A stretch of 25,714 bases of DNA from positions 1 through 25,714 of the forward strand of contig JBGPNL010000001.1 in NCBI GenBank assembly GCA_041487555.1, written 5' to 3'. Within the stretch, counting starts at the first letter, position 1, and every line of letters begins with the position of its first letter. The position numbers and the translations under genes were made by a program. A model generated the notes under the pieces. It was not told where the DNA came from. It did not search any database and saw only the letters and a program-made list of their open reading frames with translations. The DNA comes from Minisyncoccia bacterium (GTDB taxonomy: Bacteria; Patescibacteriota; Minisyncoccia; UBA6257; 2-01-FULL-56-20). This document shows positions 6,208 to 25,165 of this stretch, in pieces.

Positions 6208-12948
<6,741 letters not shown>

Positions 12949-19759: not shown

Positions 19760-19784
19760 AAAACCCCGATATTGTGTCGGGGTT
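19757..19784 (-). terminator. Terminator between convergent gatB and pup-like gene
   Basis: AACCCCGA-T-N5-G-TCGGGGTT stem with a plus-strand A run upstream (U tract for the minus strand). Confidence 0.7.
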
Positions 19785-19789
19785 CATGG

Positions 19790-20005
19790 TTATTGCCCAC
19801 CTTTTCCGGTGTGCTTTTTGATGCGGATCTTTTTGCTTCCGCGGCGGTTGCGCCTTTCTTCGATCTTGCGCAGGAGATCTTTGCGCTTCTTCGTTGTTTC
19901 TTCGGTTTGCTTGTCGGGCGGTTTCTTATCGGGCGCCGCCGGTTTTTCCGGCTCTTGTTTCGGAGGCGGAGCGGGCTCTTTTTTCGGTGTTTGTTCTGCG
20001 TGCAT
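19790..20005 (-). CDS. pup: Pup-like protein modifier (71 aa, C-terminal GKGGQ)
   Basis: MHAEQT start, TEET..DLL and terminal KGGQ parallel actinobacterial Pup (MAQEQT, TEETDDLL, QKGGQ); GAGGTG SD; lies 16 nt downstream of a PafA-like gene. Confidence 0.8.
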   Translation of the reverse strand: MHAEQTPKKEPAPPPKQEPEKPAAPDKKPPDKQTEETTKKRKDLLRKIEERRNRRGSKKIRIKKHTGKGGQ

Positions 20006-20021
20006 CGTTCACCTCGCTAGA

Positions 20022-21590
20022 CTAGAGAAGACCTAATCTCTTTATAGCAGCCTTGCTTTTCTCGTCAAGCTGCGAGAGATCGTTCGCGCATGGATCGGGA
20101 AGGCTTATGCATCGCCAATCCGCCTCCGACGCCGATTCGCGGGCCTTCGCGGTGAACTTGATCGTCCGCCAGGCCGTCGCATCGAAATCGTATCCGAGCT
20201 CGCTCAACCTCTCGACGATCTTCGTGCGCAATGCGGCCCGCGTCCGCGGGGGAGTGGTGAGCGCTCTGCGTATCTCCGCGTCCGTTGTCAGCCGCTCAAA
20301 ACTTTCGAGCAGGCCATAGTAGGTGCTTTCACGGAAATCGATATCGTGGAACTGGAAATTGGTTTCATGGATTTTCGCGTCGGAGAGCGACGATATTCCC
20401 TGGGAATCCATTTGCTCTTCGATGAGCCATTCAAGCGTCGGCCAGTCCAGGATGCCGATAAGTTCGCGGGGGTCCCGCTCAAGAAGCGTGAGAGCCCGTT
20501 TCCACTCCGCAAGCAGCTGGGCGTGCTCCCAGAGCTCGTTCTGTTCGACATATTTTCGGCACATTTCGTAATAGCGCCAGAGGATATCCCTGACCGTACA
20601 TCGTACGCCGGTCACAAGCTTTATTTTGATGGTTCCCTCTTTGTTCATCGCGAGTTTCTTTATGAGCGTTATAAAGCCGTCGTTCTGATCGAGAAGATCG
20701 GCCGCAAGCGTGGGATCGAAGTCGTTCGACTCAAGCAGTTCGAGTACGAGCGAGCTCACGCCTACGGTGAGCCAGAGGCTTTTCTCAAGCATATGGCTGT
20801 CGCCGCAGATCACGTGCAGCCTGCTGTACACGCTTTTTGATTCGTCCTCGACAGAATCATCCACCCGCAAATTAATGAGGGAGCGTTGGTCTCTCCTTGT
20901 CGTCCCATCCGCGTGGAGGCCGCCGATGTTCATAAATCGGGGAGAAACGGCGAAAAGGAAATCGGGCTCACCCGAAGCGGCTTGCTGGGGAACTATTCCG
21001 CCGGATCCGGCGAAAAGATATCGTGCGGCGAGGAATAGCGCCCATGACTGCGCCTTTATGTGCATGGGTTTCTTATCCTCTTTGTATCTCAGCTGGTCGA
21101 ACAAGCTCCGGGTGATCCTGTAATTTTCGTGGAATGCCCTGGTTGAGAGAAAATCCGGCATGCTCATATGCGGCTGTCCCGTTATCTGGTTGCTCGGCAT
21201 GATGCTTGTATTTTTTTTGAAGATCTTTATCCCCGGAAGGCCCTTCACCTTAGATAGTTTGTTCCAGGCATCAAGGACGTCGTTCAAAAGAAGATCGATC
21301 GCTTTATCATAGGCGACGATCTCGATGGGATCGGTGCATTCCGGCGTGCATATTTCGAGGAGCGTGCCCATGTCCCGGTACGCCATGCCGCCGTTCCGGA
21401 GTATCAATCTGCCGCCGTTTCCCAGGTTTTTCCTGCTGTCCGGGGTCATGGAGAGGTCGCTCACGATATCGAGAAGCGTGTGGAAACAGATATGATTTGC
21501 CGACCCATTCGGGGAAGCGTCGATCGGATCGCCGTCATGATCGTAAAAGAGAACATCCAATTCGTGTTCTATGCCCATTATGCGCGGCAT
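20022..21590 (-). CDS. pafA: Pup ligase PafA-like (carboxylate-amine ligase fold)
   Basis: MPRIMGIEHE, LRNGGMAYRDMG, TPEC, FHENY, TTR..RSLINLR, RLHVICGDS, LDW, FHDI, PPRTRAALR. ATG 21590 chosen because GAGGAG lies just upstream (track start 21659). Ligase versus Dop identity inferred from the DMG motif and shorter N-terminal loop. Confidence 0.8.
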   Translation of the reverse strand: MPRIMGIEHELDVLFYDHDGDPIDASPNGSANHICFHTLLDIVSDLSMTPDSRKNLGNGGRLILRNGGMAYRDMGTLLEICTPECTDPIEIVAYDKAIDLLLNDVLDAWNKLSKVKGLPGIKIFKKNTSIMPSNQITGQPHMSMPDFLSTRAFHENYRITRSLFDQLRYKEDKKPMHIKAQSWALFLAARYLFAGSGGIVPQQAASGEPDFLFAVSPRFMNIGGLHADGTTRRDQRSLINLRVDDSVEDESKSVYSRLHVICGDSHMLEKSLWLTVGVSSLVLELLESNDFDPTLAADLLDQNDGFITLIKKLAMNKEGTIKIKLVTGVRCTVRDILWRYYEMCRKYVEQNELWEHAQLLAEWKRALTLLERDPRELIGILDWPTLEWLIEEQMDSQGISSLSDAKIHETNFQFHDIDFRESTYYGLLESFERLTTDAEIRRALTTPPRTRAALRTKIVERLSELGYDFDATAWRTIKFTAKARESASEADWRCISLPDPCANDLSQLDEKSKAAIKRLGLL

Positions 21591-23494: not shown

Positions 23495-25165
23495 TTAGCT
23501 GAAGCCGATCTTCGGCCTCGTCTCTTTCGAGAGGTAGTTGATATCGTACTCTCCCTCGATGCCTTCGGTCGAAAGCATATCCGCAAGTACCTTTTCATTC
23601 GTGGGCAGCTGTTCGTTCTCGTGGATTTTTTCCCGGAGCGCGTTCATGAGGTCTTCGGGCTTAAGCCCTTTTTCCTCTTTGTTGCCGTCTCCGATCCAGC
23701 GATTATAGGCGAAGAGCCGCGCGCGCTCGGCAAGGCCGGCGAGCAAGGCTCCCGAAACGAAGAGGTCTTTGAAGCCGAGTATCCTCGACTTTCCCAATTG
23801 CCGTACCTCGATGAGCTGGTTCGCGTCCGTTTTCGGATCGAACATTGTTTCAACGCAAGGCAGAATGAGGCCCTCGCGGATCGCTTCCGCGGCGGTCTGT
23901 CCCGTGCGGGTAAAGCAGCTCGGATGGAGCGGCAGGGTCGCGGGAAGGTTCAACTCGAGGATCTGGGTCGCGCCTTCTTTCCCGGGGCGGGGAATGCGCT
24001 TCTTGAAGTAGAAGCGGCCGTCCCGGATTACCGCCGGATCGATGAGGTCGTCGCGATTTTCGGCGGCGATCAGGAGTATTCTCCGCTTTTCGAGGTGAAA
24101 TCCGCCGACAAGCGAATTCCACTGAGCGACGTGCGTATTGATCCATGGTGCGTTGTCGCTCATTCCCCGGTGGGGGAACATGGCGCCGAATTCGTCCCAA
24201 AGGATGACCAGCAGGTCGCATTCGGGTCCCGACTCGAGGATGAGATGGCGCAGGGCCGCCTCGGTATTTCCCAGCCATTTGTCGAGTAGTTCCGAACCGC
24301 GTACGAGGATGAAGCCAACCTTATATTCCTCGCCGAATCGTTCGTGGCATTTTTCGCGGAGTTCGCTTGCGATGCATTCCGCAAGCAGGGTCTTGCCGCA
24401 TCCCGGGGGGCCGACGAGCCGGCCGCAGACGATGAATGAATCTTCGGTCGCGACCTTAAGGAGGAATTCCTTCGCTCCCACGGGGTCGAGCAGGGGATTG
24501 ATCGCTTCTTCGCGAAGCTCTTTGATCTCCTTTTCGAGGCCGCGCACCATCGCGAATGTCTTTTTCGGATCGTAGGTGTCGAGCTCTTTTCCGGATGTTT
24601 TAATGCCGATCTTTTTTACCGCTATGCCGCCGCGCACAAGGAGATGATTACCTTGCTTCAACTCGGCGACGACAAGCCCTTCCGCCGGCAGGACCATTTG
24701 CAGTTCGCCCCGGCAGTTCTTCACTGCGAGCAAATTCCCGTGGAGCGAATCGAACGGCAAAAGCTCGCCCAGCTCCGCCAGATCGGCGCTTGCGTGAACG
24801 ACAACCTTGCCCGAAGCGATCCACAGCGTCTGTCCGCTCTTGAGGGAGTCGAGGTCGATATCTGTTCCGTCAAAGTGGGATTTCGCAAGCACATATACAA
24901 GATTCGCACTGCCGCCTTCGATCTCGATGACCCTCTTTTCTTTGTGGATGATCTTTACAAAGTAAGCGAAAGACCACGGAGCTGCCGCGATCTCGTCAAG
25001 TTGTTGGGAGGCTTCTTGAAGCCTGTCCGCAAGTTCGTCGATGATCTTTTCCTGCTCTTCCAGTTTTTTTTCGTTTTCTTTATTCGCTGTGCCGAGCAGC
25101 TTGAGCTGCATCCGCAAGGCCGCGATCTTCTGTTCCAGTTCCGGTCGATCGTTCGGAGGAGCCAT
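23495..25165 (-). CDS. arc: ARC/Mpa-family proteasome-associated AAA+ ATPase
   Basis: N-terminal coiled coil ending AAAPWSF, interdomain region, Walker A GPPGCGKT, pore loop GSELLDKWLGNTE, Walker B ILWDE, SRH AENRDDLIDPAVIRDGR, VSGALL and ENEQLP (Mpa ENEDLP); GAGGTG SD. Confidence 0.88.
   Translation of the reverse strand: MAPPNDRPELEQKIAALRMQLKLLGTANKENEKKLEEQEKIIDELADRLQEASQQLDEIAAAPWSFAYFVKIIHKEKRVIEIEGGSANLVYVLAKSHFDGTDIDLDSLKSGQTLWIASGKVVVHASADLAELGELLPFDSLHGNLLAVKNCRGELQMVLPAEGLVVAELKQGNHLLVRGGIAVKKIGIKTSGKELDTYDPKKTFAMVRGLEKEIKELREEAINPLLDPVGAKEFLLKVATEDSFIVCGRLVGPPGCGKTLLAECIASELREKCHERFGEEYKVGFILVRGSELLDKWLGNTEAALRHLILESGPECDLLVILWDEFGAMFPHRGMSDNAPWINTHVAQWNSLVGGFHLEKRRILLIAAENRDDLIDPAVIRDGRFYFKKRIPRPGKEGATQILELNLPATLPLHPSCFTRTGQTAAEAIREGLILPCVETMFDPKTDANQLIEVRQLGKSRILGFKDLFVSGALLAGLAERARLFAYNRWIGDGNKEEKGLKPEDLMNALREKIHENEQLPTNEKVLADMLSTEGIEGEYDINYLSKETRPKIGFS

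Follow-up and report, generated by a model that had tools for sequence, protein, structure and literature searches.

To our knowledge, current models recognize only two families of Pup-type protein tags, i.e., the acidic Pup and the basic, ultra-conserved UBact. Pup (PF05639, TIGR03687), which operates with Dop, PafA, and Mpa/ARC, is a small protein with a disordered N-terminal half and a helix-forming C-terminal half, and the genes of its locus lie in the order ARC, Dop, Pup, PrcB, PrcA, PafA. UBact (PF20513, NF033388) is a known basic homologue of Pup, reported from Parcubacteria-type candidate phyla. In both Pup and UBact the C-terminal Gln is deamidated to Glu before ligation, and an alternation of Gln and Glu at this position is a signature of such tags. 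Pupylation also takes place without a proteasome, in Corynebacterium glutamicum. The original UBact paper is reportedly that of Lehmann and co-workers, published in BBRC in 2017.

The window, i.e., the whole stretch of 25,714 nucleotides analyzed here, contains an operon of four co-oriented genes encoding, in this order, an ARC-like ATPase, a Dop-like enzyme, a PafA-like enzyme, and a small basic protein that we refer to below as the tag (Table 1). From its sequence and setting, this protein is most likely a tag of the Pup/UBact kind, in a new variant that is rich in Lys, strongly basic, and very rare; its hosts are Parcubacteria, and no proteasome was detected in the three of their genomes searched. 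The operon is built like that of Pup in combining two Pup_ligase-family enzymes with an ARC-type ATPase, and the tag falls in the same size class as Pup (60–75 aa). The two loci differ in gene order and in that PrcB and PrcA stand between Pup and PafA in the Pup locus, whereas the tag directly follows the PafA-like gene.

Table 1. Features of the tag operon in the window, with the basis for each assignment.
Feature	Start	End	Strand	Basis
Hairpin and T-run, between tag gene and convergent gatB	19761	19785	(-)	Sequence
Tag gene, 71 aa	19790	20005	(-)	Translation, counts, homologues
Shine-Dalgarno-like GAGGTG, 4 nt before the tag ATG	20010	20015	(-)	Sequence
PafA-like enzyme, 545 aa, Pup_ligase family	20022	21659	(-)	Pfam, NCBIfam, loop length
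Dop-like enzyme, 542 aa, Pup_ligase family	21710	23338	(-)	Pfam, NCBIfam, loop length
ARC/Mpa-like AAA ATPase, 556 aa, N-terminal coiled coil	23495	25165	(-)	NCBIfam, C-terminus comparison

The translated tag begins with MHAEQT and ends with KGGQ. Its composition, counted by script, is 16 Lys and 7 Arg (23 K+R) against 11 D+E, exactly the figures that the preliminary description had obtained by hand, giving a net charge of +12 and a pI of 10.32; the last 30 residues carry a net charge of +10. The start codon lies 16 nt past the stop codon of the PafA-like gene. The hairpin and T-run beyond the tag gene are a probable operon terminator; the hairpin can also be read on the + strand and is common to the tag gene and the convergent gatB. 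Because 13.7 kb of the window contain 110 ORFs of at least 40 aa, the size of the ORF is not significant on its own. AF2, run on the alignment of the four tags described below, returned a coil at residues 1–31, a single helix at 32–66, and a free tail at 67–71 (GKGGQ), with a mean pLDDT of 72. This predicted fold, i.e., a disordered Pro/Lys-rich N-terminal half, a helix, and a free five-residue tail, would correspond to the architecture of Pup. Elsewhere in the window, a single ORF of 2246 aa (6208-12948, + strand) lies upstream of rpsF, at a site where one would expect rpoB and rpoC as two distinct genes.

Homologues of the tag occupy the same operon position in three genomes besides that of the window (G000), i.e., G001, from the same genus; G003, from another genus of the same family; and GCA_030688665.1, a GenBank MAG of 'Candidatus Liptonbacteria'. 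The family has these four members only. The order ARC, Dop-like, PafA-like, tag is identical in all of them, so that conservation of the ORF beside homologous ligases, which the preliminary description had proposed as the thing to look for, was found in 4/4 genomes. The housekeeping neighborhood from miaA to gatB is conserved as well: gatB, NUDIX, HD, and tmk genes were matched at 3/3 of the other loci and miaA at 2/3, the contig of G001 ending inside the ATPase gene. Membership of the CPR/Patescibacteria is consistent both with the genome sizes (0.5–1.3 Mb) and with the names used in GenBank (Liptonbacteria, Parcubacteria group). The contig of the window is contained in sediment samples (runs X1 and X2). 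At the Liptonbacteria locus the gatB homologue (L047:9836-11776, - strand) encodes 646 aa, with GatB_N split by PDDEXK_3 according to precomputed Pfam matches, and the split may reflect the insertion of a nuclease or of an element similar to an intein.

Pairwise comparison of the tag copies gave pS values of 0.5–0.9, i.e., near saturation, with pN values of 0.21–0.41 and, for the pairs where it could be estimated, dN/dS of 0.22–0.28. Shine-Dalgarno-like motifs precede all four copies, which lie 16–30 nt past the stop of the PafA-like gene. Since synonymous sites are near saturation while pN is low and the motifs recur in four copies, the tag gene is a real, conserved gene under purifying selection. 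It is exceedingly improbable that the ORF is a spurious product of low-complexity sequence. Such an origin might be suggested by its biased composition and by two ORFs on the other strand that overlap it and are about as long (19772-20020 and 19809-20036), but it is effectively refuted by the retention of frame, start, stop, Shine-Dalgarno motif, and C-terminal motif in four genomes despite the near-saturated synonymous sites. The homologues are, moreover, called as genes by NCBI pipelines, the two deposited ones being annotated as 'hypothetical protein'.

All four tags share a Pro/Lys-rich N-terminal half (M..E[Q/E]..K.P.PP), an invariant KKR[K/R].L block, and a conserved end, (V/I)RI.KH.GK.G[Q/E]. 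The last four residues read K[G/S/T]G[Q/E]: KGGQ in the window tag and the Liptonbacteria homologue, and KSGQ and KTGE in G001 and G003. The last residue is thus Gln in three genomes and Glu in one, an alternation that the family has in common with Pup, as it does the KGGQ end.

The family is very sparsely distributed. A profile search (HMMER) of 1.84 billion representative proteins returned only two clusters of homologues and one artefact. This third, weak match (P0008; a predicted protein of 187 aa at L049:291-854), considered as a tandem 'poly-tag', was rejected as a satellite translation and database artefact, because its 857-bp marine metagenome contig is a DNA satellite whose periods (74/85/159 nt) are not all multiples of 3. 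A word-indexed homologue search with the tag gave no match, PADLOC and the ESM Atlas gave nothing for it, no RNA run was found listed, and full-text literature searches found no description of such a tag and no paper tying pupylation to Patescibacteria or Parcubacteria. Pup_ligase genes occur in 8/401 sampled genomes of the phylum and the basic tag in 3/125 genomes of the GTDB family, belonging to two genera; in an order-level sample of 401 genomes that did not include G001 or G003, the only match was in the window's own genome.

This distribution bears on whether the tag might be a real small basic protein that is never conjugated, acting as a binder of nucleic acids or ribosomes or as a regulator or chaperone of the neighboring enzymes. 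An extreme content of Lys and Arg, combined with a long predicted helix of amphipathic character, is what one would expect of a protein that binds nucleic acids. We nevertheless regard this as very unlikely, since the tag is always the last gene of a ligase operon, its end (G-K-x-G-[Q/E]) is invariant apart from the Q/E alternation at the very last residue, the C-terminal tail is predicted to be free, and among the 125 family genomes homologues were found only in those that also carry these Pup_ligase-family enzymes and in none of the others.

The contrast with acidic Pup that had first drawn attention to the ORF was upheld. A set of 27 Pup sequences has a median net charge of -11 (-9 in the last 30 residues), a pI of 4.3, and 3–7 Lys, whereas the four tags have net charges of +6 to +14 (+9 to +10 in the last 30 residues), pI values of 9.8–10.4, and 13–18 Lys. 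The charge reversal relative to Pup is therefore real, and in the C-terminal half it is almost mirror-like. A basic charge is not unprecedented in the Pup/UBact class, since canonical UBact is already basic: 29 sequences have a median net charge of +5 (+4 in the last 30 residues) and a pI of 10.3, and are Arg-rich with 3–5 Lys, and five CPR UBact sequences have medians of +6, +6, and pI 11.1, with 3 Lys in the one counted. What is new in the tag family is the magnitude of the charge (about twice that of UBact), the richness in lysine, and the sequence itself.

None of the tags was matched by the Pup and UBact models of Pfam (PF05639, PF20513) at E ≤ 1 or by those of NCBIfam (TIGR03687, NF033388) at E up to 10, and a six-frame search of the window's genome with PF05639 found nothing. 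The only NF033388 match in that genome, on contig 42 (ARYRQRTGQ), lies out of frame inside an HD-domain gene and was dismissed as chance. With hhalign, the tag family gave probabilities of 0.8% against 29 canonical UBact sequences, 2.5% against 27 Pup sequences, and under 3% against the five CPR UBact sequences; a control of UBact against Pup gave 0.4%. Because the control was equally blank, hhalign is without power on such short, disordered proteins. More generally, sequence tests cannot show the tag to be homologous to either Pup or UBact, and as the same tests fail to recover the link between Pup and UBact they have no power in this matter.

Custom HMMs of Pup and UBact scored the tags about like shuffled sequences, the sole exception lying in the low-complexity N-terminal half of the G003 tag. 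With the Pup HMM the window tag obtained 0.6 bits, a score equalled or exceeded by 363/500 shuffles. With the UBact HMM it obtained -6.0 bits, which is below the shuffle mean, compared with about 50 bits for divergent CPR UBact controls. Three of the four tags fell under their own shuffle mean with the latter model (417–499/500 shuffles at least as high), and the G003 tag was marginally above its shuffles (35/500 at least as high).

By eye, the tag family is a mosaic. The KGGQ end and the spacing from the Leu-Leu pair to the C-terminus (26 residues, compared with roughly 24 for Pup and 20 for UBact) are Pup-like. The UBact-like features are the QKPxPP motif, the LL[K/R][K/R][I/M] segment, and, in two members, an end of the form K[S/T]G[Q/E]. 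Two points of the preliminary description thus agree with our comparison, i.e., that the C-terminus is Pup-like, KGGQ being equal to the Pup consensus QKGG[QE], and that the Pro-rich N-terminal half is UBact-like, QKPxPP resembling the UBact motif MPDxIQKPxP. A third, the correspondence of a DLL..I segment to the Pup helix, did not find statistical support, although the segment is colinear with Pup: in one tag, the alignment to the Pup HMM pairs DLL..(L/I)D in colinear order, and all that is shared with the Pup region LLDEID.VLEENAE.FV..YVQKGG is DLL..I and KGG. In view of the failure of the models and of these mixed motifs, we treat the tag as a sequence family apart, within the same functional class, and do not commit ourselves as to its descent.

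Two simpler derivations can be weighed against this placement. According to the first, the tag would be a direct descendant of Pup in which acidic residues have been swapped for basic ones. The KGGQ end, the Leu-Leu spacing, the colinear alignment, a Pup-like N-terminus (M-x-x-E-Q-x-K), and the mirrored charge of the last 30 residues all fit, as does the occurrence of canonical acidic Pup in other CPR genomes and of an acidic tag with a similar N-terminus in G002, a genome of the same genus. We consider this derivation decidedly unlikely, however, given the lack of any PF05639 match, the low hhalign probability, the restriction of the one HMM signal above shuffles to the low-complexity N-terminal half rather than the functional C-terminal half, and the position of the operon's enzymes, which are not nested in actinobacterial clades (see below). 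Of the 'charge-reversed Pup' of the preliminary description, then, the opposite charge stands, and descent from Pup is supported by no model.

According to the second, the tag would be a divergent member of the UBact family and nothing new in kind. Here the basic charge of canonical UBact, the short motifs seen by eye (QKPxPP, [D/E]LL[K/R][K/R][I/M], and the [K/R][T/S]G[Q/E] end in 2/4 members, i.e., G001 and G003), and a host range of candidate phyla that include Parcubacteria-type lineages are in its favor, together with matches to UBact models in other Patescibacteria. We judge it unlikely nonetheless. UBact is extremely conserved, and all 78 canonical sequences end in RRYRQRTG[Q/E], although this motif was the pattern used to gather them in a scan of metagenomes (a scan of genome contigs with CPR UBact yielded three CPR loci only); the tag family ends in HTGK[G/S/T]G[Q/E], without RRYRQ. 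The tags fail PF20513 and NF033388 even at E values of 1–10, score with the custom UBact HMM like shuffles, have six more residues from the Leu-Leu pair to the end, and owe their charge to Lys where UBact owes it to Arg. The loci differ too: UBact contigs long enough to include the flanks have the order ARC, Dop, UBact, PrcB, PrcA, PafA, with prcB and prcA adjoining the tag in every one, whereas the order in the tag operon is different and 20S proteasome genes were not found in the searched tag genomes. Finally, the enzymes of the tag operon fall outside the UBact-linked Dop and PafA clades.

Both enzymes are members of the Pup_ligase family (PF03136), with scores of 279 bits (7e-83) for the Dop-like and 201 bits (4e-59) for the PafA-like protein against a cut-off of 25. 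Among NCBIfam models the best were Dop for the former and PafA for the latter, the ranking being marginal; both proteins scored under the equivalog cut-offs of TIGR03686 and TIGR03688 and are therefore not orthologues by NCBI criteria. We compared them with 30 Dop and PafA reference sequences, which came from 24 metagenome loci with canonical UBact and from three loci of actinobacteria. There are 63 columns in which at least 93% of the references agree, and of these 46 are kept in the Dop-like and 42 in the PafA-like protein. Both retain the core, i.e., GxExE, the Asp that is conserved in the Y-x-D motif, the H and R residues, and the GD motif. The PafA-like enzyme, the more divergent of the two, has lost near-invariant residues (it has Met instead of Arg at residue 92 and Leu instead of His at residue 100) and the TRDEP motif, and because of several such losses its activity as a ligase is not assured. 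Identity of the enzymes to other CPR homologues is about 25–35%.

The extra loop of Dop lies in the segment between the ExE motif and a conserved Asn. This segment measures 69–88 aa in the reference Dop and 39–53 aa in the reference PafA sequences; in the four-genome family it measures 74–77 aa in the enzyme adjoining ARC and 53–57 aa in the enzyme adjoining the tag. These loop lengths and the marginal model scores, the two sources of the ligase assignment, agree in pointing to a pair made up of a Dop-like and a PafA-like enzyme. A maximum-likelihood tree united the sequences of the four tag-bearing genomes, for either enzyme, in a clade of their own (SH-aLRT 100%), and both clades sat on long stems (1.2 and 1.5 changes/site) outside the UBact-linked and the actinobacterial clades. 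A call of Dop versus PafA from the tree was dropped, as its backbone was unresolved and UBact-linked Dop and PafA grouped together; we used loop length for this purpose because the tree could not decide. As a separate observation, the grouping of UBact-linked Dop with UBact-linked PafA to the exclusion of actinobacterial PafA (loci L053-L132; SH-aLRT 95) hints at independent duplications, or else at a rooting or long-branch problem in the history of Dop and PafA. Judged by whole-protein charge, the PafA-like enzymes of the tag operons and those of UBact systems are acidic, and three PafA sequences from actinobacteria are basic, but since Dop is acidic everywhere this gives only a crude hint as to the re-wired ligase groove that, according to the preliminary description, such a tag might need.

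The ATPase matched pup_AAA (TIGR03689) best among NCBIfam models, over its full length, with 194 bits against an equivalog cut-off of 505. Its C-terminus (...PKIGFS) is without the GQYL docking motif with which the actinobacterial reference ends, and the ends found in tag operons are PKIGFS, PKIGFTK, and RIGFKPID. The [K/R]IGF end (23495-23530 in the window) is conserved in the three tag-bearing genomes compared and occurs also in G058; the ATPase of G037 ends in GHYL, which resembles a proteasome-docking motif. A possible complementarity of the basic tag to an acidic ARC coiled coil was not supported: counted in the 55 aa that precede the OB domain, the coiled-coil charge was -3 to -5, against -3 in the actinobacterial and a median of -2 in the UBact-linked proteins.

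Proteasome 20S subunits (PF00227) were not found in G000, G001, or G003, the three tag-bearing genomes searched. With completeness at 88% for G000 and 75% for G001, G003 (95%) is the one genome for which their absence can be taken as secure. Both G001 and G003 have ClpP genes. Given that no proteasome was found and that the ATPase has no docking motif, the tag probably acts without a proteasome and the outcome of tagging would be proteasome-independent: tagged proteins would be unfolded or remodelled, as they are in Corynebacterium, or passed on to a different protease. The closest known parallel in this respect is C. glutamicum, in which the tag, Dop, PafA, and ARC likewise occur without a 20S proteasome and unfolding or remodelling driven by ARC is implied. 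It differs in having a canonical acidic Pup, whereas in the present case high divergence marks the tag as well as the two enzymes, and the bacterium has a genome of about 1 Mb.

Tags of other kinds are found elsewhere in the CPR. G442 ('Candidatus Nomurabacteria'), a genome with Pup_ligase genes, carries a canonical acidic Pup, and other CPR genomes with Pup_ligase genes have acidic or mixed small ORFs ending in EGQ, PGQ, or GGQ. In G002, from the same genus as the window, an ORF of 48 aa (L034:6567-6713, - strand) has an N-terminus like that of the basic tags (MMEEQEKKPAPP), an acidic C-terminal half ending in EGE, and a net charge of -8; it lies past two Pup_ligase genes and adjoins miaA. 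The Pup_ligase enzymes of G002 share 27–33% identity with those of the window. Tag charge within this one genus is +11 to +12 in G000 and G001 and -8 in G002, and from this ORF and its divergent enzymes it follows that both the charge of the tag and the enzymes differ sharply within a genus. Small ORFs that match the UBact model and end in NIGQ or NRGQ were also seen, at L019:1474-1644 (- strand, G410), at L020:1492-1671 (+ strand, G330), and at L050-L052. The hosts of the first two are Yanofskybacteria-type genomes, and a PF03136 search of G410 and G330, both about 100% complete, found no Pup_ligase gene.

Taken together, the operon with Dop/PafA-like and ARC-like partners, its synteny, the Gln/Glu end, purifying selection, and the retained enzyme core lead us to regard the ORF, with good though not full confidence, as a candidate conjugatable tag of the Pup/UBact class, forming a separate, tiny family in two genera of one Parcubacteria family and in a 'Candidatus Liptonbacteria' MAG. 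The preliminary description had likewise placed it in the Pup class, and the neighboring Dop-like and PafA-like genes, the G-[Q/E] end, and the retention of the ORF next to the ligases bear it out.

A mechanism can be drawn, in all its steps, by analogy with pupylation, starting from the observed gene, its conservation and synteny, the enzyme family, the core residues, and the charge. The Dop-like enzyme would deamidate the C-terminal Gln of the tag to Glu, a step that would be dispensable for the one homologue that already ends in Glu. The PafA-like enzyme would then activate the γ-carboxylate of this Glu with ATP and join the tag to lysine side chains of target proteins, and the Dop-like enzyme might also remove it. 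The ARC-like ATPase would recognize the helical half of the tag and unfold or remodel the tagged protein.

A bolder version, in which the operon is an orthogonal, charge-inverted system born within the CPR, seems to us unlikely. Its Lys-rich tag, with 16 Lys and an invariant Lys three residues from the end, might build poly-tag chains on lysines of its own, or recruit tagged proteins to RNA, ribosomes, or DNA, or deliver them to ClpP, in place of a proteasome, via the conserved C-terminal IGF motif of the ATPase. Binding of nucleic acids or ribosomes had been raised as a possibility in the preliminary description. If it were true that the system is orthogonal and charge-inverted, the polycationic tag would do something that Pup cannot.

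As a candidate tag of the Pup/UBact class, the family would be the third Pup-type sequence family, and one that neither Pfam nor NCBIfam can see. The Dop-like and PafA-like enzymes that accompany it are its own and very divergent, and no proteasome was detected in its host, whose genome measures about 1 Mb. The family would offer a natural experiment on how a tag with the opposite sign of charge is handled by the binding groove of PafA and Dop and by the receptor on ARC, and a candidate orthogonal tagging pair for protein engineering. The C-terminal motifs of this class of tag would form a continuum, with KGGQ, KSGQ, and KTGE occurring within a single family, and the charge of the tag can differ sharply between species of one genus.
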